Shown here one piece after another: positions 36,631 to 64,000 of a DNA stretch of 64,000 bases. Source of the stretch: Naegleria gruberi (taxonomy: Eukaryota); NCBI GenBank assembly GCA_000004985.1, contig GG738882.1; one strand, given 5' to 3'. How positions within the stretch are numbered: position 1 is the stretch's first letter; each line of letters begins with the position of its first letter. The notes under the pieces are model-generated. The model saw nothing but the letters and a program-made list of their open reading frames with translations. It did no database searches and was not told where the DNA came from. The translations under genes were made by a program, and so were the position numbers.

Positions 36631-39600
36631 TTATTCCAAATTGGCTTGCTTCATCAACTTATTCTTGTAGTTAACAATTCCTTGATAAGTTTCGAATTGT
36701 TGAGTGAAGATAAATCTAGAAAAGGTGTCACTCAAATTGAAAAGAACTTGATTTTGGAGAGTTTCAATTGATTTTCTGATTGACTCTTTCAATTCTTGTG
36801 AAATTTGATTCTTTTTGCCAAAATTCTTTCCATTTTCCAATTCAATATCTTTAGTTTTAGAATCTGTAGAGTCCAGGTCCTGTACAAGATTAACGAATGA
36901 TTTCTTACAATCTGATGGGATGTTAACTTCCTTCAAAGAACCGTTCTTGACATAGGTTTCATAAATATGCAGAATAATTGTTTGAGCTTGGTGAGAATCG
37001 TCCAAGTTTTCAAAAACATTATTCTGATTTTTGATTTCCAAATAAAGTTGTAAATTTTCAAGGGAATACTCCTTTTCGCAGAACCATTCGAACAATTGCA
37101 AACCCTCAGCATGTTCTAATAATTTCACTAACTCTTCTCCTTCATCTTGTTTAGTTTCGTATGAGCTCTTTCTAATCTTGTGAATAAATAGCACAATTAA
37201 AGAATAACCTCCAAATACAAACAAGTAACTGAACAAGTAGAGAATGTCAAAAAGTAATGAAATAGAATCATTCAATAGTAACATTTTCAAAGAGTCTGTC
37301 TTTCGATAAGTCAATCCTGATAGGCCAATAATTTGTGAAATAACCAAAAAGGTAAAACACATTACAAACAAACACATCTCAGCTCTGAAATATAATGGAG
37401 AATCCAATCTAATAATATTTTCATAAACCCCTTTCAGTGGAATCTTTACAAGTTTCTTTGCAGTTGTAAAATTATCGAATTTCTGCAGTTTTTCCAAACT
37501 TTTACCAGTAAGTAAATCATTCAAAGAGAAATTGAGCTTCCTTGTTTCATTATCTGTTGTTTGTTCTTGACCTTGTTTGATAATTTCGTTTTCCTTTCTC
37601 TTGGAGAGGAAGACCATAATCCAATCCAATGCAATCATACAACAAATAATGAATCCTAGAAGGAGAATCGAACAAGTAAACGAAATGGAAACAATATGAG
37701 TATACGTAGTGCCTGTAATGGCTCCAGTACGAATGAGAATAACCCACAGAGTCCAATACAATACATTCAATGTTACAAATACTGACATTACAATAAGCAT
37801 TACCTTGGTTGAAAGGAATAGTTTTGTAACCTTGAGAAGTGTTTCACTCTTTGGTTCTTTAGAATTAAACCTCAACCATATTTGATGATGAAAATATTTC
37901 AATACTTGGAATCTTAAAACTTGATACAAGTAGGAAAAGATTGCAGTGAGTGTAATGGTGTTTACAATAATTGTAAAAATATTCGAAATGATATTAGCAG
38001 CCAAATCTCCATTTTGTAATTGAAGAACTGTAGATTGACTATTTTCAAAATCATTTTGATTTCCAAGAACACTATTAGCATATCTCAGTAGAATACCTCT
38101 CTGAGTTATAAGTAAAAGTGCACATTCAATGATAAGAGCTGCCATTCCAATAAAAGGAGTTACAAATCTGCTAGTGACAGGTTGAGATTTTCTGAAAACA
38201 ATCAACAGTACTAAAGTAATCGATGATAGAATCAAGAATAAAGAGCCGAATGAAATTTGAGCAATGTAGAGTGAAGAAACTTGTTTAAGGAATTCTGCAT
38301 TTGTTGGAGTTTCTTGTTCTACAAATGCTGCAAAGAGAGTTGTGTGATTACATTGACAAGTTAATTGCTTGGTTTGATTGTTGAAATAATAAACTGAACA
38401 TCCTTCTCTTTCCCATTTGTGATTTGTTTCGTTCCAAAATTGGCAGCTTAATGAAGTGTTAGAAACTGAAGAGTTTGTTTCTAATGTAAAGCTAATGTAG
38501 ATTGGTTCAATTAAGTTGGACAATGATAACGGAGAACCAGATTTGTATAATGTGAATTCTTTTGAATTAGTCAATTGTGTTGAATTACCATTTGTGTACA
38601 AATTCTCATCAAAGGTTATGAGAGCCAATCCAATTTCCTTATAGTATCCATCGTATTTGGCAAGAATATAATCTGTATCTATTGTAACTCCATTAAATTC
38701 CTGAACAACATTGTCAATAGATGAAGTTTTCAAAAAAGTGGAAGTTGTAATGTTGATCAAGTCGGATATGTATGAATTCTGATCGAGAGATCCTGAAAAT
38801 ACTCTTGATGCTTGTTGGTTAATAATAATGGAAGATAATTGGGAACAAAGAGTTGTCACATTAACAAATCCGTTCAATAAAATATTGCTGGCAGATGACA
38901 AGGTATTTTTCAAATCGCTTTCTGACATTCTTTGTTTAGAGAGATAACCATTGGAAGACTTATCACTTTTGATTATTTCATTTACCGAGCCCAAGAAATT
39001 CTCCAATTTGGAACTAAGGATAGAAGCTACTTTGTTTTCTAATGAATTTGTTGTTGTCAACTGGTTAATAACTTCCAAAGTAAGTGAAGGATTTTCAACA
39101 TGGAGGTTAAGACTGTTCACATATTCGTATATTATTTCATTTGATTGTTTTCTTGATTGATCGTATGGAAGGATAACCGACAATCTCTCATCGTGTCTTA
39201 TTCTATACTGTAAGGTTTCTGCATCTTCAGAGTTGAGAAGAACTTGGACTGAACCAAAATATTTTGAATATTGATTGGAGAGACTGTCTCTTGCAATGAC
39301 ATATATTTGAACAGTGGCAGACTCAGTTTTGTTATTAGACAAATAAGGAAGGTAGCATGAACAAGTAAGATTCTTTGAAAACTCATTCATTCGAATAACA
39401 ATGTTTTCCCCATGTACATTCGAATATTCAAAACCAAATGCAAACTCTAACGGGGAAAGCTCGTATGGTACAATCCAGTTGTTCAAATCTTCTTCAAAGT
39501 TGAAAAGCGTTGAAAGGGCCATTCCTGTTTGAGGTAAAATATTAACATTAGAATGTAATCTTTCAGGAGGAGACAATATTGGAATGCTTTCTAAAAATTC

Positions 39601-42600
39601 AACTGTTTCAGAGAGATTTTGAGAATTATAAAATTTCACACTCAGTGTCAAGTTTCCTTGACCGTTATTATGAAAACTTCCTTTTAGAGAAAGAACTGGA
39701 CTAAACGAAAGTTTGTACAAACCATTAGTAGATCTTCCAATAAAACTGGCAAGTATATACTCTGGTGGTTGCGAATAAATTTTTTGATTTCCATCACTAA
39801 TCTGCCATGAATATTTCAAATTCGTCCAAGTACAATTTGTACAATTATTAGAAAGTCTAATGGATTCAAAATCATTAATATATTCTAAATATGCACCAAT
39901 GATGTTCATATCTATAACTTGGTTCAATCCTTTGACAACAGCTTTTGGTTTACCAATTATTTCTATTAATCTCTTTTCCTTTACAATTTTTTCCTTACAA
40001 TTCGCTCCAAAATAATCTGGTTTACAAGCACACGTGTTAGGATAAATGCAACTACCTTGTCCTGAACAAACTAAAGATGAATTTGTATAAATCACTCCAA
40101 AGCAATGGAAGAGGTCACAATTAATTCCAGTAAATCCTTCATTACATATACAGGTATCGGTGATATTGCAGTTTCCATGCCCAGAACAAACATTAGAATT
40201 ATTGAAAAGGACTCCATTACAATAAAATGTTTCACAATCCAATCCATCATATCCAATCTTACATGTACAGGAATTAGGAGAAGTACAAGTGCCAAATCCA
40301 GAACAAACACTTGTAGAATTATGCAATTGAGCATTACAATAAAAAGTCTCACAATTATCCCCGAAATAACCATCCTTACATTGACAAATATTTGGCAAAG
40401 TGCAATTTCCGTTTCCTGAACAAACCATTGAAGAATTGTGATTCACATTATTGCAGGAATAGTTTTCACATTCGTTTCCGCTATATCCAGAACTACAGAT
40501 GCAATTATTAGGAGAAGAGCAATAGCCATGTGATGAGCATACTTTGGAGGAATTATTCAATAGACCACTACAATTATAACTTTCACAATTATTACCAAAA
40601 TATCCATTCAAACAAGAGCAATTGTTTGGAGCAGTACAGTTTCCATTTCTAGAACAAACATCTGTGGAATTGTGCATCTTGTCACCACAAAAGTACGTTT
40701 CACAATTATTTCCATAATATCCTGTTTGACATGAAGAACAAATATTTGGAGATTGACATACTCCTCGTCCACTACAAACCTTTGTTGAATTGTTTTGAAT
40801 TCCAAAACAATCCCATACACTGCAATCTGATGAATAGTAGTTAGAAGAGCAAGAGCATTGATTTCCAGCAATACATACACCATGCCCTGAACAAACATTA
40901 GTTGAGTTGGTTGCATTAATTCCAAAACAAATTGGAACCTGACATAACGCACCTGTATATAGTGGAGAACACTGACAGTTGTCTATTCCTACACACGTAC
41001 CATGTCCAGAACAAACAATTGATGAGTTAGATAAGATTCCATTACATTTAGGATATTGACATCTCTCTCCTCCATATCCATTAACACATGAACACTGATT
41101 TACACCAATACATGTCCCTTTACCACTACAAACGTTAGATTCCCCTTGAAGAATACCATAACATTTGGGTTTCTCACAGTTTACGCCTCCCCACGAGCTG
41201 CTATCAGTGCATTGGCAAGTGTTAGGAGACTGACATGTACCTCTGCTATTACAAACAGTTCCATCTGTAGAAATAATGTTATTACATTTTGGAAATTGAC
41301 ATAGGTTACCTCCCCAATTATTTTGATCGTTACAATTGCAATTTTCAATGGAACTACATATTCCTCTTGAGTTACAAACAAGCGGATCACCCTTAAAATA
41401 AGATCCACATTTAGGATTTTCACAAAATTGACCTGAATAATTTGGATCGCAAATACAAACATTTGGGGCCGTACAGACACCATTTCTATTACAAACATTT
41501 GCGTCGCTGGCTGCTATACTATTACATTTTGGAAATTGGCAGAAGACTCCAGTATAATTTGTATTGCATGCACATGAACCCACACCAACACATGTTCCAT
41601 TTGCACTACAAACTTTGGGATCAGTTGACAGTATGTTGTCACACTTTGGATATTGACAATCTGATCCTCCCCAATTGTTTGGTACATTACATGTGCAAGA
41701 ATCTGGTGCTGAGCAAACACCTCTACTATTACATACACCAGCATTACCTTGTAAAACTCCATTACATTTTGGTTTTTCACAATTTTGACCTCCCCATGCT
41801 GCTGGACTTGTACACTGACACGAGTCAACTGCTGAACAAAGACCTCTTCCATTACAAACATTGGATTCTCCCTGAAGAATTCCAGAACATTTTGGTTTTT
41901 CACAATTAGCTCCTCCCCAACTTGTTGGTTCATCACATTGGCACTGATTGTTTCCAATACATTTGCCTCTACCTGAGCAAACTGTTGCAAAGTTAATACT
42001 CTCAATACCATTACAAAAGCTTGTAAAACACTGTGTGCCATTACTGTTCAGGTTGTAACCATTATCGCAAGTTGGCATTAAAACACGAATCTTATTCGTA
42101 CCTCTCTCTGCAAATATAATTTGTCCAGTAGTTTCATTCACAAACAAACCAGCAGGAAGTGAAAGAGGACTCAAATGTGAAATTGACCCATCATCTGCAA
42201 GGGCTTGTATTCCATTACCAGCAATGGTTGAAATGATTCCATTCTTCACTCTTCTAATTCTATTGTTTTCGTGATCTGATATATAAATTACTTCATCTTG
42301 AGTAACATAGACAAATACTGGATCTTGCAGCATGGAAGATTTTGCAGCAACATTATCTGGTCCAAATCCTAAGGTTCCATTTCCTGCAACAGTTGAAATC
42401 TTTCCGTCTGGTTGAATCATTCTTATTCGATGATTCTTCTTATCGACAATGTAGATCTTATCATTTCTAACGAAAACACCATGGGGTTCATTTAACTGAG
42501 CTGTACTTGCTTGAATTCCATCTCCATTATAATTAGCCGTTCCAGTACCTGCAATAGTGGTAACAGTTCCTGACTCGACCTTTTTAACTTTGTGATTATA

Positions 42601-43176
42601 AAAGTCAGCAATATAATATAAGCCAGTGTAAGGTACAAAGATAGCTGGTGGATGGTCTAGTTGAGTTACTCCTGTGGCTCCTATAGCATCTCCACAACCA
42701 GGAACCCCAACACTTGTTGCAATGATATTAGAACTCACCATACGAATTTTACAGTTATATTGATCTGCAATATAAATGATATTGTCCATAACAAAGACAC
42801 CATATGGATAGTATAGTTTGGCAGAGGTAGCTAACTGTCCATCTCCTGTAGAACCTTGTTGACCAACCTTGCCAGCAATAATGGTAACATCACCATTAGC
42901 ACTTCTTTTCTGGACAATATTATTGTACTGATCCACAAAGTAAATCTCATTGTTGTACATGTGCAGGCCACCAGGTTTTTGTAAATTACTAACGAGAGTT
43001 TGGATTGTATATTTGATAGGCGATTCGGCTTGTTTAGAATATCCACCCCACAAGAACAAAATCACCAGAACAATTATTGGCAGGCATCTGTTTGGAAGAG
43101 GTGTCATACTATTTTTTTTGTTGAGATTCGTTTTGTTTATGCACTTCACCACTTGGACTGTTAAGTCCATTCTCAT
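36631..43176 (-). CDS. adhesion-GPCR-like giant protein (2181 aa, single exon): signal/anchor, NHL repeats, ~20 EGF-like Cys repeats, spacer, GPS-like motif, 7TM, C-terminal RGS domain
   Basis: The NHL repeats (~plus 42070..43000) include YFVDQYNNIVQKR, IYIADQYNCKIRMV, YYIADFYNHKVKKV, IYIVDKKNHRIRMI, IYISDHENNRIRRV. The EGF-like units (~40150..42070) follow the pattern PKC.G.L.....VC.SRG.C..P..C.C....W.G..C. The GPS-like motif (~38330..38450) is CQFWNETNHKWEREGCSVYYFNNQTKQLTCQCNHTTLFAAF. Seven helices lie at ~37180..38290. The RGS domain (~36690..37130) starts with LQLFEWFCEKEYSLENLQLYLEI and ends with LSDTFSRFIFTQQFETY. Confidence 0.8.
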   Translation of the reverse strand: MRMDLTVQVVKCINKTNLNKKNSMTPLPNRCLPIIVLVILFLWGGYSKQAESPIKYTIQTLVSNLQKPGGLHMYNNEIYFVDQYNNIVQKRSANGDVTIIAGKVGQQGSTGDGQLATSAKLYYPYGVFVMDNIIYIADQYNCKIRMVSSNIIATSVGVPGCGDAIGATGVTQLDHPPAIFVPYTGLYYIADFYNHKVKKVESGTVTTIAGTGTANYNGDGIQASTAQLNEPHGVFVRNDKIYIVDKKNHRIRMIQPDGKISTVAGNGTLGFGPDNVAAKSSMLQDPVFVYVTQDEVIYISDHENNRIRRVKNGIISTIAGNGIQALADDGSISHLSPLSLPAGLFVNETTGQIIFAERGTNKIRVLMPTCDNGYNLNSNGTQCFTSFCNGIESINFATVCSGRGKCIGNNQCQCDEPTSWGGANCEKPKCSGILQGESNVCNGRGLCSAVDSCQCTSPAAWGGQNCEKPKCNGVLQGNAGVCNSRGVCSAPDSCTCNVPNNWGGSDCQYPKCDNILSTDPKVCSANGTCVGVGSCACNTNYTGVFCQFPKCNSIAASDANVCNRNGVCTAPNVCICDPNYSGQFCENPKCGSYFKGDPLVCNSRGICSSIENCNCNDQNNWGGNLCQFPKCNNIISTDGTVCNSRGTCQSPNTCQCTDSSSWGGVNCEKPKCYGILQGESNVCSGKGTCIGVNQCSCVNGYGGERCQYPKCNGILSNSSIVCSGHGTCVGIDNCQCSPLYTGALCQVPICFGINATNSTNVCSGHGVCIAGNQCSCSSNYYSSDCSVWDCFGIQNNSTKVCSGRGVCQSPNICSSCQTGYYGNNCETYFCGDKMHNSTDVCSRNGNCTAPNNCSCLNGYFGNNCESYNCSGLLNNSSKVCSSHGYCSSPNNCICSSGYSGNECENYSCNNVNHNSSMVCSGNGNCTLPNICQCKDGYFGDNCETFYCNAQLHNSTSVCSGFGTCTSPNSCTCKIGYDGLDCETFYCNGVLFNNSNVCSGHGNCNITDTCICNEGFTGINCDLFHCFGVIYTNSSLVCSGQGSCIYPNTCACKPDYFGANCKEKIVKEKRLIEIIGKPKAVVKGLNQVIDMNIIGAYLEYINDFESIRLSNNCTNCTWTNLKYSWQISDGNQKIYSQPPEYILASFIGRSTNGLYKLSFSPVLSLKGSFHNNGQGNLTLSVKFYNSQNLSETVEFLESIPILSPPERLHSNVNILPQTGMALSTLFNFEEDLNNWIVPYELSPLEFAFGFEYSNVHGENIVIRMNEFSKNLTCSCYLPYLSNNKTESATVQIYVIARDSLSNQYSKYFGSVQVLLNSEDAETLQYRIRHDERLSVILPYDQSRKQSNEIIYEYVNSLNLHVENPSLTLEVINQLTTTNSLENKVASILSSKLENFLGSVNEIIKSDKSSNGYLSKQRMSESDLKNTLSSASNILLNGFVNVTTLCSQLSSIIINQQASRVFSGSLDQNSYISDLINITTSTFLKTSSIDNVVQEFNGVTIDTDYILAKYDGYYKEIGLALITFDENLYTNGNSTQLTNSKEFTLYKSGSPLSLSNLIEPIYISFTLETNSSVSNTSLSCQFWNETNHKWEREGCSVYYFNNQTKQLTCQCNHTTLFAAFVEQETPTNAEFLKQVSSLYIAQISFGSLFLILSSITLVLLIVFRKSQPVTSRFVTPFIGMAALIIECALLLITQRGILLRYANSVLGNQNDFENSQSTVLQLQNGDLAANIISNIFTIIVNTITLTAIFSYLYQVLRFQVLKYFHHQIWLRFNSKEPKSETLLKVTKLFLSTKVMLIVMSVFVTLNVLYWTLWVILIRTGAITGTTYTHIVSISFTCSILLLGFIICCMIALDWIMVFLSKRKENEIIKQGQEQTTDNETRKLNFSLNDLLTGKSLEKLQKFDNFTTAKKLVKIPLKGVYENIIRLDSPLYFRAEMCLFVMCFTFLVISQIIGLSGLTYRKTDSLKMLLLNDSISLLFDILYLFSYLFVFGGYSLIVLFIHKIRKSSYETKQDEGEELVKLLEHAEGLQLFEWFCEKEYSLENLQLYLEIKNQNNVFENLDDSHQAQTIILHIYETYVKNGSLKEVNIPSDCKKSFVNLVQDLDSTDSKTKDIELENGKNFGKKNQISQELKESIRKSIETLQNQVLFNLSDTFSRFIFTQQFETYQGIVNYKNKLMKQANLE

Positions 43177-43743: not shown

Positions 43744-46700
43744 ATGTATTCGCATCCACATCATCAGTTATCTTCAACACCAAATAACACGATTGGACAA
43801 CAAACATCACCATCAGTAAATCATCATCAGCAACTTTCAAGTCCACACTATCATCAGCAACAACAACCAAACAATGTTTATCAACAACAACAACATAATA
43901 GTACTGTAATAGCGAGCTTTAATGATGCGTCTGGTGTTGCTTTTAATGGAAATAATATTAATGGTGGCAGTAGTCATAATAATATGCCAATAGGTGGTGG
44001 TCATGGAACTAGTTTGATGACTCAATTACTATCTAACAACAATAATAATAACAACAACAATCAATCGCCATCCATGATGCAACAACAACATATTCAACAT
44101 AATTTTGCAAATAATAATAATCAAACAACACAACAACATCAATTGATGGCTAATAATAACATGAACCAACACCATAATGGAAGTTTGAGTAGTAACAGTG
44201 GTTCTCCGAATATCCATAGTTCCTCGTATAATAATAACAATTATATGAATCATCCAAATTTTGTATTGAATTCAACTCCTTCACCCGATAATAATATGTA
44301 TTCTCAGCAACAACAACAAATGTATCATAATACACAATTGTCAAATAATAATTATCAAAATAGTCAACAACCAATGATGATGAACCGAGCATCTCCTAAT
44401 CAACAACAACAACAAATTAATAATACTAGTGTAATGGATAATAACCACCAACCATGGAATCAATCTTCGGGAGGTGGTATTTGGAATCAATTCGTGATGA
44501 ATAATTCTAATCAACAAGTAACTGCACAAAGAAATTATAATCAAGCACCAACTATGGTCCAACAACATCAACAAATGGATAATATGAACTACAGTTATGT
44601 AAATAATTCAAACCCCCAAAATAGTGCATTACTCAGTCAGTTATTAAATAATAATAATACCATGATGAACCAGAATCCAACAGATGTGACAATAGATTCA
44701 TTGAATTATGCAACATCATCTGCAGTCGATGAACAGGATGACGGAGCAGAAGCTCAGTTTCACCCAATTGCATGTTTGAATTGCAGGAAAATACATAAAA
44801 GGTACGTACAAGTCAAATAACCTATTTCTAATTTTAATAGATGGTAAGTGATTGAAATTAGTTCAGTAATAATTTAGATTTTTAATGAAAATTAGTGGTA
44901 AGTAATATTATTCGAATAATTAAAATTCTAAATGACTGCATTCTTAGATAAGAAATTACCTTTCTGTACCAGATGTACAACTAAAGGATTGAATTGTGAA
45001 TATAAGGAACCATTCTTTAAAAAGGCTGCGGAGAAGAAGGAAAAGAAAAGGAGGAAGAAAAAAGGTGACATTATTACTATGTTCAATGTTGGAGATGAAA
45101 ATGAAGTGGCAGCCAATGCTATTAAATCTATCAAACAGAACACAATTGAAACCTATTGCAGCATTGTTTGTATGGGTAATCCACCATTTGATCAAGAGGT
45201 ATGTTTGAAATCTAATAATCAAATAATTTATAACCTTTCACTAGGCATTAGAGAAGTTATTACTTGTTGGACCACAAGAGTTGCTTAGTCGTCGTGACGT
45301 TTTATCATTTCTCTTGTCTATTCAATCTCTGTGTGAATTAAAGTTTGGATATCCTGATTTGGCAGAGGAAACAATGATCAAGGCAAGAAACAGTTTGTCA
45401 CATCATTTCGATGATTATGAAAATCCTTTCGTTGTTTGCACATATTCCCATCTTGCATTCTTCTATGCAGCCGAAGGAAAAACCAAACAAGCAAGAGGAT
45501 ATCTCAGTTTTGTAAATCATTACATGAGTGATTGGAAACAAGGTCATACTGCAGAAGAATCTCCACATGGAGAAATGAATGGAACTTTATATAGAGTTAG
45601 TATTTCGAGATTGAATTGGTTGTGTCTCATAACAGAACTAATTTCAACAGAGACCCATCCTGTCCCTAACATCTCCACTATTGAAAAACTCTCCTTGGAC
45701 ATGCTTGGACTTGCAATGCCAGAAGAATGGAAAGTTTATCTCACATATTATCAATTAACTGATAGTAAGAATGTGGACGAAAGATTGAAAACTTTGGAAT
45801 TATTTGGATCACTCCTGCACTTTGCAATGGGCCCTCAAAATAATTCTGTCTTTGCAACAAGATTGCACAGTCTCAACAATATCATTTGTATTAATGGGAT
45901 TAGAGCTACAGTGTTACTTCTATCTGGATGTAATGTTGGTGCCTTACATGGGGTTGATACTGCAGGATCAGATAAGGTGATAGCAGAGCACATTAATTTA
46001 TTGGAATATGCTGCTCTAGCTATTAGTAAGACGACTGAAGAAGAGTTCTTCCCATTCATTTCACCATACTTAATTTCCTTCTTTTTGGTCGCAGTTAAGG
46101 TTAATTTGGAAATTTGTAAAATGATAGAAAGAGGAGAACGTGAAAATTATCGTCCTTGTCCTAAAATTGTAAATAGAGAAGTGAAATTGGATGGCATTGA
46201 TTTAGACCAATATTATACAGTTGTAGATTATTATAGTGTTGTAGCAAAAGACTTGCGTGGATTGCATGTACTGAGGAAACGATATCGTTACATTGCTAAA
46301 TATGTTACAGACTTGGAAGAATTTCTAGCAAAGAGGTCTACCCAATCTTTGGAATCTATTGCCAATTTTGCCAATTCTTCTATCATTCCTGATTTGAGAA
46401 TCAACCAACCTTTGACAAACACCAATAAGAGTGAAAGAATTGGAACTTTTTATAGTGAAATGAGGAAATTCATGTTGACTTTTAACAAGGGATTAGGTGA
46501 AGCTCTCTTGGGTCAACCAAGAAAAAGTGGAACAGGTGGTGACAATTTATTCTCCCATCCAGCTCTTTCTATGGTAATGAATGGGTCAATCAAACCTGGA
46601 AATGTTAACGAGTTATCAATGTACGTCTCTGAAATATCCAAGAACGTTCAAGAGCAAGCAGATGCCTTACGAGATTTGAGCACGCCTAGTTCTATTGATG

Positions 46701-53032: not shown

Positions 53033-56000
53033 GTGAAAGGCATTACAATTCCATCCACAAACAAAATGTCCAACAATATCCTTGTTAATTTGCTTGTGTT
53101 AACTTTTTGCTTGTGTTTTGTTGCGTTTGCCAGCTTTTCCAATGCAGCTGCTGTGAAATATAAGATTACAACGGTACTTAGTTCTCTCGAAACACCGAAA
53201 TCTATTCACGTACTAACAAGTGGTGATATTTATTTTGGTGAATATAACACAATATCAAGTAGAGTTAAAAAGTGAGTATTTGATCTTTAAAACTTGACTT
53301 ACTTTCGAAGACTGTCTTCAGGTTCAACAACAACAATTGTTGGTGGTGGAACAACAACCACTGATGGAGCTTCTCTTACAGACGCATTATTGAGTAAGTT
53401 TTTTTAGATTGGTCAACCAAACTAATTCTTCACAATAGCTGGATTATATTTTTGCTTTGACGAAACCAACAACAAAATGTACATTAGTGACGAAGGCTTA
53501 CATAAAATAAGACTGGCCGATCTTGGAAATAATAATATTAACACATTAACCAGTAATTCCTACAGTCCAACATTTATAACATTAGATAGTGTAAACAGTA
53601 GAGTGCTATTCACTGATCCTGAAGATTATAGTGTTCGTTATTTCAGCTTATCATCTCCATCAACCGTAACACCTGTCAGTGCTTCGACAAATACTGTTTC
53701 TGGTATCACAGTTTCGACAGCTGGAGAATATTATTTCGCAGATGGATCCAGCAAAGTCATAAAACTTACTTTACCAAATACGAAAAGTAATTATGTAACT
53801 GGATTGAGTAATCCTCAAGGATTATTTTGGAGATCTAATGAACTGTTCATTGTAGATGCTGATAGTACAACTCCTAAAATTAAGAAGTATGATGGAACAA
53901 CTCTTACAGATATTGCTGGAGGTGGATCTTCTGGTTGTGCGAATGATATTGAGGCAACAAGTTGCAAATTATCAAGCTCCATCTCAGGTATTTACGTCAC
54001 CAACAAGAATGAAATTTACATCACTGAAGCCAGAAGTTCACCTAATGGAAATATCAAGAAAATTTATCCATATTGTGATAGTGGTTATCAATTATCTTCT
54101 GATGGAAAAACATGTGATCCTATTTGTTATTCTAAAGTAGGAGANNNNNNNNNNNNNNNNNNNNNNNNNNNNNNNNNNNNNNNNNNNNNNNNNNGGCTTA
54201 TCTGGTCCAACAGGAATATTCTACACAACGTATAATGAAATATTCATTTCTGATTCTGGAAATAAGAAGATCAAGAAATATGAAGGGGGATCAACCTCAG
54301 ATTTTGCTGGTGCCAGTGGAGCTGGGACTACTTGTGCAGAAGACTCAGAAGCTCTCTCTTGCTATTTTTCAACTAGTATTTATGGTATTTTCGTTACTGA
54401 CAAGAATGAAGTTTATGTAACTGAAGGAATATCCGACACTGGAACTGTTAAGAAAATTTATCCATACTGTGATAGTGGTTATCAATTAACATCTGATGGA
54501 AGATCATGTGTTCCTATTTGTTATTCCAAAGTAGGGGATGCTGCCTGTGGAGGACCAACTCAAGGAGCTTGTAGTGCTCCTGATACTTGTCAATGTACCA
54601 CCAATTATTTTGGAAACGAATGTGGCTCACCAAAGTGTTATGGAAAAACATCCAATGCCTGTAATAATCAAGGTACCTGCACTGCAGTCGATACTTGTGT
54701 TTGCAATGCTAACTATTTTGGAAATGAGTGCACTTCACCAAAGTGTTATGGAAAAACCTCCAACGCTTGTAACAATCAAGGTACTTGTACTGCAGTCGAC
54801 ACTTGTGTTTGTAATGCCAACTATTATGGAAACGAATGTACTTCTCCAAAGTGTTATGGAAAAACATCCAATGCCTGTAACAATCAAGGTACTTGCACTG
54901 CAGTCGACACTTGTGTTTGCAATGCTAATTACTACGGAAATGAGTGCACTTCCCCAAAGTGTTATGGAAAAACATCCACAACAGCTTGTAACTTGAAAGG
55001 TACCTGCACAGCAGTTGACTCTTGTCAATGTAATACCAATTACTATGGAAATGAATGTACAGTCACAACTTGTGATGGCAAGTATTCCAATACTTCAGTT
55101 GCTTGTAACAACCAAGGAACTTGTGCTGATTATAATACTTGCAATTGTAATACTAATTATGGAGGTTCTTATTGCAGTCTTCCAAAATGTGGTGGAATTC
55201 TGTCAGATAATCCATCCGTCTGTTCAGCAAATGGCACCTGTGCTGGTGTTAATAATTGTCAATGTAATTCTCTCTATACAGGATCCAATTGTGAAACTCC
55301 TATTTGTTATGGAATTCAAGCCACTCAAACATCAACTGTGTGCTCTGGACAAGGTATTTGTGTGGCTGGTGACAAGTGTGTTTGTAAAGATTATTCCAAA
55401 TATACTGGACTAAAGTGTGATTCTCCAATTTGTAACTCAAAACCTTCAACAGATCCAAATGTTTGTAACTCTAGAGGTACATGTACTGCACCAAATACTT
55501 GCCAATGTACTGATACTAATCTATTTGGTGGAAATGATTGTGAACTATTCAAGTGTAATGGTACACTCTCCAATCAAGGATCAGTTTGTAGTGGAAGAGG
55601 TACATGTTTAGCCAATAATATTTGTCAATGTACTGATACTAGCTCTTGGGGAGGAAATTTTTGTTCAATTCCTAAATGTAATGGAATTCTTGCCAATGAC
55701 ACTAGAAAATGTTCATCTAGAGGTAATTGTATTTCACCAAACACTTGCCAATGTTATGAGAGTAATAATTATGGTGGATCAGATTGTGAAATTTTCAAAT
55801 GTGGTGGAATCCTTTCTACTAATACTTCTAAAGTTTGTTCTGGAAAGGGTACTTGTAAATCATTGAATAACTGTGAATGTTTACCTAATTATGGTGGTGC
55901 TAATTGTGAACTTGTTAAATGTTTTGGCATTTTACAAAACGAAAGTTCAGTATGTAGTGGAAAAGGTTCATGTAAGAATGTTGATACATGTCAATGTGAT

Positions 56001-57656
56001 AATGGTTATGGAGGTTCTAATTGTAATCTTATTAGATGTTTTGGTGTCTATACTAACCAAACTAATTTGATTTGTAATAATGGAAATGGTACTTGTATTG
56101 CTCCTGACACTTGTTCATGCAGTACTGGGTGGACAGGATCAAAGTGTGATGTTGCAATTTGTAATGGAAAACTTTCTAATGACACACGTGTCTGTTCATC
56201 AAAAGGTCAATGTGTGGGTCCAAACAATTGTAAATGTTCCACCAATTACTATGGAACAAACTGTGAAAAGACAACTTGTAATTCTGTTGCTTCAGATGAT
56301 AGCACAGTTTGTTTTGGTCATGGTTCTTGCCTTTCGTATAATAATTGTAATTGCTCAACTGGATATGGACCTTCCACAACTTGTGAATTCCCAATTTGTT
56401 ATGGATTATTGGCAAATGACAGCCGTGTCTGTAATGATACTGACAAGTTTTGTTTTGCACCAAATGATTGTAAGCCAAAGAATCCAACTTGTTATGGAAT
56501 TGAAAAGGCAGACAGTAGATCATGTTCTGGACACGGAATTTGTTTATCAACTGATAATTGTCGATGTGATTCTAGCTACTTTGGTGAACAATGTCAATAT
56601 TTCAAATGTTATGGTGTTGAATTCAACTCATCATCAGTCTGTAGCTCACACGGTTCATGTGACAGTGTAAATAATTGTAATTGTCGAGATGGTTACGGAG
56701 GAAACAATTGTGAACTTGTTAAATGTAGTGGAATTTTACAAAATTCAAGCATGGTTTGTAGTGGAAGAGGTAAATGTGTTGATGTTAACACATGTAATTG
56801 TGACAGTGGATATTATGGCTCTGATTGTCAATTGACCACCTGTTTTGGTATTGAACAAGCAAGCTCACAAGTTTGTAACAATAGAAATGGTACTTGTCTT
56901 TCGTTTGATAATTGTAACTGTCTTGATGAAAGCAAGTGGTTCGGATCAGCATGTAATACGACGTATTGTTATGGGAAAACTTCATTGGATTCTAATGCCT
57001 GTAACTCTCAAGGTAATTGTGTCAATTTTAACACATGCCAATGTAAACAAAATTATGCTGGCAATCAATGTCACTTGAGATACCTTTCTCAATCATTCAC
57101 CTTATCATTCAATAGCACTACTGATTTTATTGGAGAAATTTCCACCATACTCACCCTCAGCATTCAAGATTCCACATTCCTCGATTTTTATGCCAACAAA
57201 TCTGTCGACATTAAGTTGGAATTCCTTCTTGACAATCAAGCTCTCACTTCAGCAATATCTTCCCAACAATCACTATATCCAAGCATGTCTTTCTCTCTCC
57301 CATCCTCTCTCTCCAAAGGATCACTCACAGCAAAGGCAACTCTCTACAATTCCACAACACCAATCTCATTCCAAGTTGCAACCGAAAGTGCCTTAATACT
57401 CCAACAACGAAACACTCCAATTGCCTCAAACTCTATTCCATCTCGTGCTGGAGAACCATCAATTCAAGGAAATAGTAATGCAGGAGTTATTGCTGCAGCT
57501 GTGGTCGTTCCAATCGTTTCAATTGCAGCCATTGGAGGTGGTGTTGCTGTGGTCATTACTGTTGTGGTCTTGTTGAAGAAGAAGGCAGCTGCTACTTTGG
57601 CCAAGGATATTGCAACAGCTGCTCACACTGATGTTGAATTGGCAGGTAATCTTTAA
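53033..57656 (+). CDS. type I membrane protein: signal peptide, NHL repeats, ~28 EGF-like Cys repeats, TM, short tail; exons ~53033..53271, ~53311..53393, ~53439..54144, [50-N gap], 54195..57656
   Basis: The signal peptide is NILVNLLVLTFCLCFVAFASFSNA. The 39-nt and 45-nt introns give ...SSRVK|K|LSSGSTTTIVGGGTTTTDGASLTDALL|T|GLYFCFDETNNKMYISDEGL. NHL-like units recur (IYITEARSS, VYVTEGISD). The EGF-like pattern C.G....S..C.SRG.C..P..C.C....YGG..C runs from ~54540 to ~57060. The TM is GVIAAAVVVPIVSIAAIGGGVAVVITVVVLL and the tail ends AGNL-TAA. The frame is continuous from 54195. The track begins its ORF at a TTG at 54993 only because no start-like codon occurs in the repeats. Confidence 0.7.
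54145..54194. other. assembly gap (50 N) inside the NHL/EGF gene
   Basis: A run of n characters. The coding frame differs on the two sides, which is expected for an arbitrary-length gap. Confidence 0.99.
54628..55059 (+). repeat. four tandem 108-bp (36-codon) repeats encoding the EGF-like module SPKCYGKTSNACNNQGTCTAVDTCVCNANY(F/Y)GNECT
   Basis: Copies start at ~54628, 54736, 54844 and 54952. The first three are ~90-95% identical at the nucleotide level, with almost all differences at synonymous third positions. The fourth copy is diverged. Confidence 0.85.
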
Positions 57657-57805
57657 AAGTATTATTAAAATTATTTTTGTTCTAAGGACCTTTACTTTTC
57701 CTGAATAACTTGTTTGGTTGTACATGACATTTGTTGGAGATGAATGCATGAAAACAATTATTTCAACATGTTTGACTGTATCTTCTTTAAACTCTCTGCC
57801 AGAAC

Positions 57806-60800
57806 NNNNNNNNNNNNNNNNNNNNNNNNNNNNNNNNNNNNNNNNNNNNNNNNNNNNNNNNNNNNNNNNNNNNNNNNNNNNNNNNNNNNNNNNNNNNNNN
57901 NNNNNNNNNNNNNNNNNNNNNNNNNNNNNNNNNNNNNNNNNNNNNNNNNNNNNNNNNNNNNNNNNNNNNNNNNNNNNNNNNNNNNNNNNNNNNNNNNNNN
58001 NNNNNNNNNNNNNNNNNNNNNNNNNNNNNNNNNNNNNNNNNNNNNNNNNNNNNNNNNNNNNNNNNNNNNNNNNNNNNNNNNNNNNNNNNNNNNNNNNNNN
58101 NNNNNNNNNNNNNNNNNNNNNNNNNNNNNNNNNNNNNNNNNNNNNNNNNNNNNNNNNNNNNNNNNNNNNNNNNNNNNNNNNNNNNNNNNNNNNNNNNNNN
58201 NNNNNNNNNNNNNNNNNNNNNNNNNNNNNNNNNNNNNNNNNNNNNNNNNNNNNNNNNNNNNNNNNNNNNNNNNNNNNNNNNNNNNNNNNNNNNNNNNNNN
58301 NNNNNNNNNNNNNNNNNNNNNNNNNNNNNNNNNNNNNNNNNNNNNNNNNNNNNNNNNNNNNNNNNNNNNNNNNNNNNNNNNNNNNNNNNNNNNNNNNNNN
58401 NNNNNNNNNNNNNNNNNNNNNNNNNNNNNNNNNNNNNNNNNNNNNNNNNNNNNNNNNNNNNNNNNNNNNNNNNNNNNNNNNNNNNNNNNNNNNNNNNNNN
58501 NNNNNNNNNNNNNNNNNNNNNNNNNNNNNNNNNNNNNNNNNNNNNNNNNNNNNNNNNNNNNNNNNNNNNNNNNNNNNNNNNNNNNNNNNNNNNNNNNNNN
58601 NNNNNNNNNNNNNNNNNNNNNNNNNNNNNNNNNNNNNNNNNNNNNNNNNNNNNNNNNNNNNNNNNNNNNNNNNNNNNNNNNNNNNNNNNNNNNNNNNNNN
58701 NNNNNNNNNNNNNNNNNNNNNNNNNNNNNNNNNNNNNNNNNNNNNNNNNNNNNNNNNNNNNNNNNNNNNNNNNNNNNNNNNNNNNNNNNNNNNNNNNNNN
58801 NNNNNNNNNNNNNNNNNNNNNNNNNNNNNNNNNNNNNNNNNNNNNNNNNNNNNNNNNNNNNNNNNNNNNNNNNNNNNNNNNNNNNNNNNNNNNNNNNNNN
58901 NNNNNNNNNNNNNNNNNNNNNNNNNNNNNNNNNNNNNNNNNNNNNNNNNNNNNNNNNNNNNNNNNNNNNNNNNNNNNNNNNNNNNNNNNNNNNNNNNNNN
59001 NNNNNNNNNNNNNNNNNNNNNNNNNNNNNNNNNNNNNNNNNNNNNNNNNNNNNNNNNNNNNNNNNNNNNNNNNNNNNNNNNNNNNNNNNNNNNNNNNNNN
59101 NNNNNNNNNNNNNNNNNNNNNNNNNNNNNNNNNNNNNNNNNNNNNNNNNNNNNNNNNNNNNNNNNNNNNNNNNNNNNNNNNNNNNNNNNNNNNNNNNNNN
59201 NNNNNNNNNNNNNNNNNNNNNNNNNNNNNNNNNNNNNNNNNNNNNNNNNNNNNNNNNNNNNNNNNNNNNNNNNNNNNNNNNNNNNNNNNNNNNNNNNNNN
59301 NNNNNNNNNNNNNNNNNNNNNNNNNNNNNNNNNNNNNNNNNNNNNNNNNNNNNNNNNNNNNNNNNNNNNNNNNNNNNNNNNNNNNNNNNNNNNNNNNNNN
59401 NNNNNNNNNNNNNNNNNNNNNNNNNNNNNNNNNNNNNNNNNNNNNNNNNNNNNNNNNNNNNNNNNNNNNNNNNNNNNNNNNNNNNNNNNNNNNNNNNNNN
59501 NNNNNNNNNNNNNNNNNNNNNNNNNNNNNNNNNNNNNNNNNNNNNNNNNNNNNNNNNNNNNNNNNNNNNNNNNNNNNNNNNNNNNNNNNNNNNNNNNNNN
59601 NNNNNNNNNNNNNNNNNNNNNNNNNNNNNNNNNNNNNNNNNNNNNNNNNNNNNNNNNNNNNNNNNNNNNNNNNNNNNNNNNNNNNNNNNNNNNNNNNNNN
59701 NNNNNNNNNNNNNNNNNNNNNNNNNNNNNNNNNNNNNNNNNNNNNNNNNNNNNNNNNNNNNNNNNNNNNNNNNNNNNNNNNNNNNNNNNNNNNNNNNNNN
59801 NNNNNNNNNNNNNNNNNNNNNNNNNNNNNNNNNNNNNNNNNNNNNNNNNNNNNNNNNNNNNNNNNNNNNNNNNNNNNNNNNNNNNNNNNNNNNNNNNNNN
59901 NNNNNNNNNNNNNNNNNNNNNNNNNNNNNNNNNNNNNNNNNNNNNNNNNNNNNNNNNNNNNNNNNNNNNNNNNNNNNNNNNNNNNNNNNNNNNNNNNNNN
60001 NNNNNNNNNNNNNNNNNNNNNNNNNNNNNNNNNNNNNNNNNNNNNNNNNNNNNNNNNNNNNNNNNNNNNNNNNNNNNNNNNNNNNNNNNNNNNNNNNNNN
60101 NNNNNNNNNNNNNNNNNNNNNNNNNNNNNNNNNNNNNNNNNNNNNNNNNNNNNNNNNNNNNNNNNNNNNNNNNNNNNNNNNNNNNNNNNNNNNNNNNNNN
60201 NNNNNNNNNNNNNNNNNNNNNNNNNNNNNNNNNNNNNNNNNNNNNNNNNNNNNNNNNNNNNNNNNNNNNNNNNNNNNNNNNNNNNNNNNNNNNNNNNNNN
60301 NNNNNNNNNNNNNNNNNNNNNNNNNNNNNNNNNNNNNNNNNNNNNNNNNNNNNNNNNNNNNNNNNNNNNNNNNNNNNNNNNNNNNNNNNNNNNNNNNNNN
60401 NNNNNNNNNNNNNNNNNNNNNNNNNNNNNNNNNNNNNNNNNNNNNNNNNNNNNNNNNNNNNNNNNNNNNNNNNNNNNNNNNNNNNNNNNNNNNNNNNNNN
60501 NNNNNNNNNNNNNNNNNNNNNNNNNNNNNNNNNNNNNNNNNNNNNNNNNNNNNNNNNNNNNNNNNNNNNNNNNNNNNNNNNNNNNNNNNNNNNNNNNNNN
60601 NNNNNNNNNNNNNNNNNNNNNNNNNNNNNNNNNNNNNNNNNNNNNNNNNNNNNNNNNNNNNNNNNNNNNNNNNNNNNNNNNNNNNNNNNNNNNNNNNNNN
60701 NNNNNNNNNNNNNNNNNNNNNNNNNNNNNNNNNNNNNNNNNNNNNNNNNNNNNNNNNNNNNNNNNNNNNNNNNNNNNNNNNNNNNNNNNNNNNNNNNNNN

Positions 60801-61766
60801 NNNNNNNNNNNNNNNNNNNNNNNNNNNNNNNNNNNNNNNNNNNNNNNNNNNNNNNNNNNNNNNNNNNNNNNNNNNNNNNNNNNNNNNNNNNNNNNNNNNN
60901 NNNNNNNNNNNNNNNNNNNNNNNNNNNNNNNNNNNNNNNNNNNNNNNNNNNNNNNNNNNNNNNNNNNNNNNNNNNNNNNNNNNNNNNNNNNNNNNNNNNN
61001 NNNNNNNNNNNNNNNNNNNNNNNNNNNNNNNNNNNNNNNNNNNNNNNNNNNNNNNNNNNNNNNNNNNNNNNNNNNNNNNNNNNNNNNNNNNNNNNNNNNN
61101 NNNNNNNNNNNNNNNNNNNNNNNNNNNNNNNNNNNNNNNNNNNNNNNNNNNNNNNNNNNNNNNNNNNNNNNNNNNNNNNNNNNNNNNNNNNNNNNNNNNN
61201 NNNNNNNNNNNNNNNNNNNNNNNNNNNNNNNNNNNNNNNNNNNNNNNNNNNNNNNNNNNNNNNNNNNNNNNNNNNNNNNNNNNNNNNNNNNNNNNNNNNN
61301 NNNNNNNNNNNNNNNNNNNNNNNNNNNNNNNNNNNNNNNNNNNNNNNNNNNNNNNNNNNNNNNNNNNNNNNNNNNNNNNNNNNNNNNNNNNNNNNNNNNN
61401 NNNNNNNNNNNNNNNNNNNNNNNNNNNNNNNNNNNNNNNNNNNNNNNNNNNNNNNNNNNNNNNNNNNNNNNNNNNNNNNNNNNNNNNNNNNNNNNNNNNN
61501 NNNNNNNNNNNNNNNNNNNNNNNNNNNNNNNNNNNNNNNNNNNNNNNNNNNNNNNNNNNNNNNNNNNNNNNNNNNNNNNNNNNNNNNNNNNNNNNNNNNN
61601 NNNNNNNNNNNNNNNNNNNNNNNNNNNNNNNNNNNNNNNNNNNNNNNNNNNNNNNNNNNNNNNNNNNNNNNNNNNNNNNNNNNNNNNNNNNNNNNNNNNN
61701 NNNNNNNNNNNNNNNNNNNNNNNNNNNNNNNNNNNNNNNNNNNNNNNNNNNNNNNNNNNNNNNNNN
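57806..61766. other. assembly gap (3961 N)
   Basis: A run of n characters. The two 1350-aa 'ORFs' of X residues across it are artefacts. Confidence 0.99.
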
Positions 61767-62560: not shown

Positions 62561-62793
62561 GGGTTTGGGTTTGGGTTTGGGTTTGGGTTTGGGTTTGGTT
62601 TGGGTTTGGGTTTGGTTTGGGTTTGGGTTTGGTTTGGGTTTGGGTTTGGGTTTGGGTTTGGGTTTGGGTTTGGGTTTGGGTTTGGGTTTGGGTTTGGGTT
62701 TGGGTTTGGGTTTGGGTTTGGGTTTGGTTTGGGTTTGGGTTTGGGTTTGGGTTTGGGTTTGGGTTTGGGTTTGGGTTTGGGTTTGGGTTTGGG
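62561..62793 (+). repeat. interstitial telomere-like repeat (GGGTTT)n with GGTTT variant units, ~233 bp, followed by a 50-N gap (62794..62843)
   Basis: The repeat starts abruptly after ...caatatttaa and reads gggtttgggtttgggtttggtttgggtttggg.... The G-rich strand is on + and points toward the window end. Confidence 0.9.
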
Positions 62794-63034
62794 NNNNNNN
62801 NNNNNNNNNNNNNNNNNNNNNNNNNNNNNNNNNNNNNNNNNNNGTCATATAAGGATAGGTCATTAAGGTTTGAATGAATTGATATGAAAATCAATACCAA
62901 TTTTGAAATGCCATTATTAATTGATCTATATATGATATTGTAATTGAAAGATTTTAAAATTAATATGATTTCACTATCTTGACATTTATTATTCTCATGA
63001 TTACACTCCTGACATGTTGAATGATATCAAATTG

Positions 63035-63095: not shown

Positions 63096-63595
63096 TGATC
63101 TGTATAGTGGATGTCGTTGTCACATCCCTGTAGGTGTCAAGTAGATCAGCCATGTACCATGTATGATGTGGATGAATATCAAAATGATATTAATGTATTT
63201 CATTAACATATATAGATGTATTGGAAGTGAATTGAAGTGGTATAGATTTCTATCTTCGATGTTAGTATTGGTCAGTTGACAAGTTGAATAGTTAATTTCC
63301 TGAAATGATACCATAGTATTTGAAACTGATATATATTGTTATTAACATGATTTACAAGGTGATATATTGGTATGAATTGATTTTGAAATGTTTACATTGA
63401 TATTCTAATTGTCTAATCTATTATATGAAATTAACTTATATAAGTCATTATAATGATGTAATATTATGTTATTATATGATTATATATTCAATTTGGAGTA
63501 TATTGATATATAATATATTGATTTATAATGAGTATTTATTGAGAAAATCAATTAAGATGACTAAAAATCAAAATGTTGGGTCTGACCTTAGTCGT

Positions 63596-64000
63596 GGGTT
63601 TGGGTTTGGGTTTGGGTTTGGGTTTGGGTTTGGGTTTGGGTTTGGGTTTGGGTTTGGGTTTGGGTTTGGGTTTGGGTTTGGGTTTGGGTTTGGGTTTGGG
63701 TTTGGGTTTGGGTTTGGGTTTGGGTTTGGGTTTGGGTTTGGGTTTGGGTTTGGGTTTGGGTTTGGGTTTGGGTTTGGGTTTGGGTTTGGGTTTGGGTTTG
63801 GGTTTGGGTTTGGGTTTGGGTTTGGGTTTGGGTTTGGGTTTGGGTTTGGGTTTGGGTTTGGGTTTGGGTTTGGGTTTGGGTTTGGGTTTGGGTTTGGGTT
63901 TGGGTTTGGGTTTGGGTTTGGGTTTGGGTTTGGGTTTGGGTTTGGGTTTGGGTTTGGGTTTGGGTTTTGGGTTTGGGTTTGGGTTTGGGTTTGGGTTTGG
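63596..64000 (+). repeat. terminal telomeric array (GGGTTT)n, >=405 bp, running to the last base of the window
   Basis: About 67 near-perfect hexamers, with one GGGTTTT variant near 63965. The G-rich strand runs 5'->3' toward the end, which is the orientation expected of a true chromosome terminus. Confidence 0.9.

Follow-up and report, generated by a model that had tools for sequence, protein, structure and literature searches.

The window analysed here is a subtelomeric stretch of 64,000 nucleotides (nt) of contig GG738882.1 of the Naegleria gruberi genome (assembly GCA_000004985.1), with a G + C content of about 33%. It contains a plus-strand locus at positions 53033–57656, previously taken for a single gene coding for a membrane protein with NHL and EGF repeats, and a large minus-strand gene at 36631–43176 (the giant), whose product has an ectodomain of the same kind. 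In the simplest reading of the sequence, the region 53066–57656 is a composite, in which an assembly gap separates two incomplete paralogous genes, the first represented by its 5′ part (copy A) and the second by its 3′ part (copy B). Both are members of an uncharacterised but ordinary family of Naegleria surface proteins. The giant, as judged from its domain content and a structural model, is a seven-transmembrane (7TM) receptor with a C-terminal RGS domain, a GAIN domain and a GPS site, and the ectodomain shared by the two loci appears as a case of old family-level homology and not of recent local exchange. Taken as a whole, this reading is considered likely. For the annotation it means that 53033–57656 should not be treated as one gene, and that copy A (NAEGRDRAFT_76764) and the giant (NAEGRDRAFT_80558) are both already annotated.

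The case for two plus-strand genes is built on the sequences bordering the gap, which is written as 50 N (54145–54194). The same segment, made up of NHL blades 5 and 6 and the cysteine-containing linker behind the propeller, is present on both flanks; the two versions are 73% identical in DNA (over 282 nt) and 59% in protein, and the spacing of the blades is 57 amino acids (aa) in both copies. Toward the EGF region the identity between copy A and copy B rises from about 65% to 88% (over the last 100 nt) and then to about 98%, a gradient that tandem paralogues with gene conversion would explain. Redundant haplotypes at the gap were also considered, and were rejected because a nucleotide divergence of 27% is far too high for alleles. 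When the 50-N gap is read literally, the parts of copy A and copy B are out of frame. Furthermore, copy A is 100% identical to NAEGRDRAFT_76764 (EFC35581.1), which runs beyond the edge of the gap into EGF sequence of its own (DAACGGPTQGTCSAPDTCQC...CTAVDTC; 54 residues, one of which differs from copy B) and ends in a C-terminal peptide for which the window has no coding sequence in any frame. Among the homologues from three Naegleria species, none has another incomplete propeller behind the linker. What is missing at the gap would be, at a minimum, the remainder of copy A and the beginning of copy B, and in the simplest reading also a spacer between them. The one-gene model of the sequence-only reading is not confirmed by these comparisons.

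It is possible, although unlikely, that the juxtaposition of the two copies is a scaffolding artefact, and that the contig 54195–57805 with copy B, perhaps together with the telomeric contigs, derives from a paralogous locus at another chromosome end. In that case copies A and B would lie apart in the genome, and no reliance could be placed on the distance to the telomere. The last 10 kb of the window hold three N-gaps (54145–54194, 57806–61766, and 62794–62843) and two (TTTGGG)n telomere arrays in the same orientation (62561–62793, and 63595–64000 at the window end), which are split by the last of these gaps; because of the three gaps and two arrays, the order of the last ~10 kb is uncertain. 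Also in keeping with an artefact, copy A is placed on a separate 7.5-kb scaffold of the Joint Genome Institute (JGI) and the giant on a 381-kb JGI scaffold, and no 100% match to copy B was found in the protein database, copy B seemingly being without a gene model among the public N. gruberi proteins. However, there is no positive evidence that places copy B elsewhere, and tandem paralogues with gene conversion account equally well for the identity gradient.

A single plus-strand gene with a real internal duplication and a truly short gap is improbable. In such a gene, the propeller with its linker and a few EGF modules would be followed by a further two blades and another linker ahead of the main EGF run. 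The gap is indeed written as only 50 N, the identity of the copies climbs toward the boundary between linker and EGF modules as it would after a recent segmental duplication, and a 108-nt tandem amplification in copy B shows that the locus does duplicate internally. This architecture, however, occurs in no homologue of the three Naegleria species, the alignment of copy B with copy A begins exactly at the gap edge, which indicates that copy B reaches further in the 5′ direction, and the ending of NAEGRDRAFT_76764 is absent from the window. In six-bladed NHL folds, moreover, a pair of blades on its own is not able to close into a propeller. Two paralogous genes on either side of the gap thus remain the preferred reading.

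Copy A starts with an ATG at 53066, and the position 53033 given earlier is an ORF (open reading frame) boundary only. Its predicted exon 1 (53066–53271) comprises the start codon, a signal peptide (MSNNILVNLLVLTFCLCFVAFASFSNA; hydrophobic segment at aa 5–23) and the first NHL blade, and ends at a putative splice site (GTGAGT...AG). The intron proposed to follow has 39 nt (53272–53310; GT..AG) and removes an in-frame TGA at 53273; it is based on the restoration of the frame and the continuity of homology. Exon 2 (53311–53393) covers the junction of blades 1 and 2 and is separated by a second putative intron of 45 nt (53394–53438; GTAAGT..AG) from exon 3 (53439–54144), which encodes blades 2–6 and the linker PYCDSGYQLSSDGKTCDPICYSKVG, is 100% identical to NAEGRDRAFT_76764 and is cut by the gap. 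The two short introns clear the in-frame TGA and the frame shift, and the spliced copy A aligns without interruption with the NHL domain of the giant. Copy A has a full propeller, with six blades colinear with the six of the giant, between its signal peptide and the P-x-C-D-x-G-Y...C linker. The closest relatives of its NHL domain are copy B (59%) and NAEGRDRAFT_49505 (32%), and for the NHL region of the plus-strand locus a Pfam scan gave only a sub-threshold match to TEN_NHL.

The open frame of copy B (54195–57656, plus strand) begins in the middle of a propeller. Blades 5 and 6 (54195–54470), which are paralogous to positions 53717–54144 of copy A and lack the 5′ part of the gene, are followed again by the linker (PYCDSGYQLTSDGRSCVPICYSKVG) and a run of about 22 six-cysteine EGF modules, 20 of them regular and two irregular (linker and modules at 54471–57071; Pfam EGF_2, EGF_TEN, and EGF_Teneurin). 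Within this run the 108-nt unit is repeated in tandem 3.5 times with 87% matches (54606–54978) and gives rise to near-identical modules (PKCYGKTSNACNNQGTCTAVDTCVCNANYYGNECTS). It is a recent in-gene amplification and a likely cause of the assembly break. A juxtamembrane beta-sandwich domain of 110 residues follows (57087–57419), which was modelled by AlphaFold2 (AF2) with a predicted local distance difference test score (pLDDT) of 85–95 and is conserved throughout the type I family, in P0005/6/7/9/10 (P0005 being NAEGRDRAFT_49505). A fold search with this stalk returned generic matches to immunoglobulin (Ig)-like or carbohydrate-binding module (CBM)-like beta-sandwiches only and gave no sign of a cleavage module of the SEA or GAIN type. 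A single transmembrane (TM) helix, seen both as a hydrophobic segment and in the predicted model (57480–57575), leads to a cytoplasmic tail of 26 residues, KKKAAATLAKDIATAAHTDVELAGNL, which ends with a TAA stop (57576–57656). From the six-cysteine EGF run through the stalk and the one TM to the KKK...D[VF]E[LI] tail, copy B has the composition of the type I family to its very end.

The C-terminus of copy B is genuine by comparison with homologues. An ending of the form TM-KKK-(about 20 aa)-D[V/F]E[L/I]-xxx-stop is present in three N. lovaniensis proteins and one N. fowleri protein, the counterpart in copy B being ...LLKKKAAATLAKDIATAAHTDVELAGNL-stop, and the position of the C-terminus in these four homologues agrees with that of copy B to within a few residues. 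Since all four share the same ending, the predicted coding sequence (CDS) of copy B ends at 57656. A downstream exon after the GTAATC at 57646 (GCAG/GTAATC) was considered as well and was rejected because the stop position is conserved in the four homologues; GTAATC is therefore not needed as a donor, and neither a downstream exon nor a 7TM region is needed for the plus-strand locus. The single TM reported in the sequence-only reading is retained, but not its tail length of 24 residues. The same comparison settles the doubts raised there about the true length and 3′ structure of the gene and about an unused donor, and the 4-kb gap that was thought to obscure the 3′ structure (57806–61766) begins 150 nt 3′ of the stop and leaves the CDS unaffected.

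The giant, when read from Met24 of its maximal ORF, corresponds to NAEGRDRAFT_80558 (EFC42088.1, 2158 aa), with 100% identity over the 1,126 residues searched and agreement of the full sequences by eye. All of its features lie on the minus strand. The start codon, where the NCBI protein of 2158 aa begins, and the signal peptide are located at 43024–43107, followed by a six-bladed NHL propeller with the cysteine linker PTCDNGYNLNSNGTQC (42028–43023; Pfam NHL, E 4e-14) and 17 six-cysteine EGF modules (39997–42015; Pfam EGF_2, EGF_TEN, and EGF_Teneurin). The region between the EGF run and the GAIN domain (39160–39996) is conserved and family-specific but unlike the stalk of the plus-strand gene; it has no Pfam match, neither REJ nor any other Pfam family being found in aa 1061–1339. 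The predicted GAIN domain (38314–39159) includes the GPS motif at 38323–38454 (C..W..W..C..CxCNHT/TLFAAF), which scored 31.6 bits in Pfam on the fragment searched (cutoff 22.5) and ends 25 residues before TM1. Seven TM helices are predicted at 37189–38250 from hydrophobic segments (aa 1643–1996) and long helices in the AF2 model. The C-terminal RGS domain (36691–37128, aa 2017–2162; Pfam RGS, 42 bits on the fragment) keeps the G-alpha contact residues SLEN, EVN, and DTFSRF, and matched RGS18/3/5/10 among PDB sequences and RGS8/16/4/17 in Foldseek.

The AF2 model of aa 1340–2181 of the giant was computed from an alignment of 13 relatives and reached a pLDDT of 72. Its parts are a helical and a beta subdomain, the seven TM helices and, representing the RGS domain, a helical bundle. 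In a Foldseek comparison with the PDB, its best matches were the GAIN domain of BAI3 (E 3e-9) and those of BAI2, CD97, GPR126, and GPR56 (E 3e-9 to 1e-3), and then RGS domains. The cysteine, histidine and threonine residues of the GPS and the RGS contact residues are invariant in 14 family members. In the GPS of the giant, His(-2), Thr(+1) and the T-x-F-x-x-F segment are conserved, and the residue at -1 is Thr, not Leu. The continuation of the giant into GPS, 7TM and RGS, which had been proposed earlier, is thus borne out in each of its three parts.

The two loci are clearly related. Both have a signal-like hydrophobic start, a six-bladed NHL propeller, a cysteine linker and long runs of six-cysteine EGF modules of the teneurin/tenascin type, in agreement with the sequence-only reading. 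In BLASTP, the NHL domain of the plus-strand gene (aa 28–322) is colinear with that of the giant (aa 52–383; 24% identity, E 6e-14), the EGF regions have 37–41% identity (E 3e-138) with an identical cysteine spacing of the modules, and the linker P-x-C-D-x-G-Y-x-L-x-S-x-G-x-x-C is common to both. Since the similarity of the NHL and EGF parts is significant and includes the linker, the NHL-linker-EGF cassette is regarded as homologous. The cysteine motif that had been quoted for the shared modules has exactly one occurrence in each protein.

A repeat-by-repeat alignment of the ectodomains gave no indication of specific paralogy, contrary to what had been suggested. The best matches between the EGF modules of the plus-strand gene and the giant are scrambled in order, whereas the modules of the plus-strand gene are 1:1 colinear with those of NAEGRDRAFT_49505. 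The mean best identity of the modules outside the cysteines is 0.45 between the two loci, which is the family background (0.46–0.48 between the plus-strand gene and four other Naegleria proteins); for reference, most modules within one protein have identities of 0.41–0.59 and the colinear modules of NAEGRDRAFT_49505 of 0.55–0.81. With the EGF region of the giant as BLAST query, the plus-strand gene scored 427 bits, alongside proteins of N. lovaniensis (449), N. fowleri (434), a paralogue (419), and Acrasis kona (417). The NHL domain of the giant has 35–40% identity to P0052, P0006, P0010, P0091, and P0093, compared with the 24% to the plus-strand gene. No similarity was detected between the stalk of the plus-strand gene and the post-EGF region of the giant (BLASTP E about 1), despite similar short strings. 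By these comparisons the plus-strand gene and the giant are distant family members whose EGF similarity is at the level generic for Heterolobosea, and the nearness of the two loci to each other and to the telomere has no demonstrated meaning. That one type I gene at 53033–57656 and the giant form a specific pair of paralogues, with an ectodomain recently grafted by subtelomeric domain shuffling, is highly improbable: the common order of signal, NHL, linker and EGF with its significant similarity, the position of the loci 10 kb apart near telomere repeats and the unrelated post-EGF parts would all fit, but the modules are not colinear and stay at the family background, the NHL domain of the giant is closer to that of other proteins, both architectures recur in N. 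gruberi and in other Naegleria species, and sequence is duplicated on both sides of the gap.

An old, family-level origin of the shared ectodomain is consistent with the distribution of its parts. A HMMER search with the C-terminal part of the giant retrieved 311 relatives (59 below 1e-30), which include N. gruberi paralogues with NHL, NHL plus EGF, lectin plus EGF or Kelch-like plus EGF ectodomains as well as FDP41_005437 of N. fowleri. At least four other 7TM-RGS genes of N. gruberi, all on other large scaffolds, have an NHL ectodomain, with EGF modules in some and without them in others. Conservation of the type I architecture extends to N. fowleri and N. lovaniensis. Like the plus-strand gene, NAEGRDRAFT_49505, C9374_014632, C9374_011222, C9374_010972, and FDP41_011322 consist of an NHL part and the linker, an EGF run, the beta-sandwich stalk, a TM and a KKK...DVEL tail, and they differ among themselves in the numbers of propellers and of EGF modules. 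Because both anchor types recur across genes and Naegleria species, the cassette appears to have been joined to different anchors repeatedly and long ago. NAEGRDRAFT_49505 is colinear with copy B module for module (64–68% identity), but in its annotated form it has a Ser/Pro-rich stretch and a terminal hydrophobic segment in place of the TM and cytoplasmic tail. This C-terminus looks like a glycosylphosphatidylinositol (GPI)-anchor signal, which would be a third anchoring mode, or alternatively like a truncated gene model. The earlier picture of an adhesion-type ectodomain on different signalling chassis therefore stands insofar as NHL-EGF ectodomains of one family occur both on a single TM and on GAIN/GPS-7TM-RGS, though not as a clean specific pair. 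A tie between the shuffling and the telomere finds no support in view of the NHL-bearing 7TM-RGS genes on other large scaffolds and of the type I proteins of the other two species.

Two further proteins from EukProt, P0020 and P0049, have EGF repeats, a C-terminal multi-TM region and an RGS domain in combination with other heads (RCC1 repeats, unknown beta domains). No obvious GPS motif precedes their TM region, so that the 7TM-RGS chassis seems to exist with non-GAIN juxtamembrane domains as well. In Heterolobosea, the six-cysteine EGF class is also found fused to a protein kinase (P0029), RCC1 (P0030/31), REJ (P0022, P0038), a jacalin-like lectin (P0014/P0046/P0056), and fibrinogen (P0008), and the same class is present in some proteins of Chloroflexota and Planctomycetes (P0050, P0060, P0076).

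In this assembly, the giant is located 21–27 kb and the plus-strand locus about 6 kb from the assembly end, in line with the statement that both lie within ~27 kb of the chromosome end. Between the two telomere arrays there are, apart from the 50-N gap, about 750 bp of unique AT-rich sequence, and the flanks of the arrays have no mutual similarity. Either one array is interstitial, or two contigs that each bear a telomere were scaffolded one behind the other. A plus-strand ORF at 34545–36614 (689 codons, with several hydrophobic stretches) is convergent with the giant, and its stop is 16 nt from that of the giant (36631, minus strand); the space for their 3′ untranslated regions must be common or overlapping. 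Directly upstream of the giant, the plus-strand ORF 43744–44820 is rich in Asn and Gln, which form long poly-N and poly-Q runs; a CxxC motif lies near its end, and the ORF is probably the 5′ exon of a larger gene.

Several points weigh against parts of the favoured reading, in which two plus-strand genes and a 7TM-RGS giant have an ectodomain of old common descent. The 5′ exons of copy A depend on two predicted introns that are unusually short. In the 7TM core of the giant, no match to 7tm_2 or another GPCR (G-protein-coupled receptor) family of Pfam was found at E ≤ 10, and the fold matches of this core are weak, with the class B receptors GLP-1R and calcitonin receptor at E ~0.06 beside Ste2 and Smoothened. 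The NHL domains of copy A, copy B and NAEGRDRAFT_49505 are degenerate, and part of their distance from the giant could be due to rapid evolution and not to deep divergence. Finally, all statements on the function of the giant and of the type I proteins, including ligand, GPS cleavage and GTPase-activating protein (GAP) activity, are made by analogy.

With this qualification, the type I proteins, a Naegleria-wide family of glycoproteins, would carry a distal NHL propeller on a rigid, disulfide-rich EGF stalk of the tenascin/teneurin type and would probably act in cell-surface recognition or adhesion, and the short conserved KKK...DVEL tail suggests a role in sorting or adaptor binding. In the giant, a similar NHL-EGF head would be coupled to a GAIN/GPS-7TM unit (with a Stachel-like TLFAAF) and an RGS domain. 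By analogy with AtRGS1 and N. fowleri, engagement of the ectodomain might change the cytosolic RGS acceleration of GTP hydrolysis on a self-activating G-alpha. During heterolobosean evolution the NHL-linker-EGF cassette would have been combined with several anchors, and Heterolobosea would reuse it on a TM with a tail, possibly on a GPI anchor, and on GAIN-7TM-RGS. A more far-reaching idea, to which only a slim chance is given, is that type I NHL-EGF proteins and NHL-EGF 7TM-RGS receptors make up a matched recognition system, with a common ligand or mutual binding of their ectodomains, and with contact read out via GAIN/GPS-controlled RGS activity on a self-activating G-alpha. Such a system would be a non-metazoan counterpart of adhesion signalling of the teneurin-latrophilin type with inverted G-protein logic, and the subtelomeric tandem copies A and B, with the gene-conversion gradient between them and their freshly amplified EGF modules, would diversify its surface repertoire.

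The closest known systems are found in Naegleria itself. For N. fowleri, 28 7TM-RGS proteins have been described; GPS motifs, EGF repeats and lectin domains occur in several of them, their RGS domains speed GTP hydrolysis on Naegleria G-alpha, and some of the G-alpha proteins self-activate (Bosch et al., 2022, J Biol Chem, PMC9283941). The giant resembles such proteins (e.g., Nf 7TM RGS2–4) in its 7TM region, C-terminal RGS domain, GPS before TM1, EGF-like repeats and large ectodomain; it differs in its distal domain, which is an NHL propeller, as the consulted sections of that study refer to EGF and lectin/carbohydrate-binding domains and have no mention of NHL (PMC9283941). Its identity to N. 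fowleri FDP41_005437 (P0088) is 37% over aa 1104–2180 of the giant (about 1,080 residues; E 2.5e-142). As an annotated member of a described class, the giant will be unsurprising to specialists after the 2022 study. Literature searches for Naegleria in combination with NHL, EGF, teneurin or ‘GAIN domain’ found nothing relevant. Relative to the literature searched, the fold-level evidence of the model for a true GAIN domain in a Naegleria 7TM-RGS protein would be new, and it bears on the history of adhesion-GPCR ectodomains before the Metazoa.

With metazoan adhesion GPCRs (family B2; latrophilin, BAI, CD97, GPR56, GPR126) the giant shares the predicted GAIN fold, a GPS directly before TM1 with the same Cys/Trp/His/Thr pattern, the Stachel-like T-x-F-x-x-F segment and a long modular ectodomain. 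Unlike these receptors, it has a 7TM core without a 7tm_2 signature, Thr instead of Leu at the -1 position of the GPS (HT/T), and a C-terminal RGS domain with presumed GAP function, from which the output expected by analogy is G-alpha deactivation and not guanine nucleotide exchange factor (GEF) activity. This combination of 7TM and C-terminal RGS is the one known from Arabidopsis AtRGS1. Unlike the giant, AtRGS1 has to our knowledge no large ectodomain and no GAIN/GPS. Fusions of 7TM and RGS are widespread in bikonts, and AtRGS1 and the other bikont proteins of this type, with which the giant agrees in its 7TM and C-terminal RGS domains, are proposed regulators of self-activating G-alpha (PMC3971589).

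The ectodomains finally invite comparison with the teneurins. Teneurins have a type II orientation, a YD shell and a toxin-like C-terminus, whereas the Naegleria proteins are of type I, with an N-terminal signal peptide and a C-terminal TM, and have the reversed linear order of domains; no YD-shell or toxin family was found in the Pfam scan of the three Naegleria proteins. The likeness lies in the matches of the Naegleria proteins to Pfam EGF_TEN, EGF_Teneurin and, weakly, TEN_NHL, and in a geometry that, from the membrane outward, leads through an EGF stalk to a distal NHL propeller.

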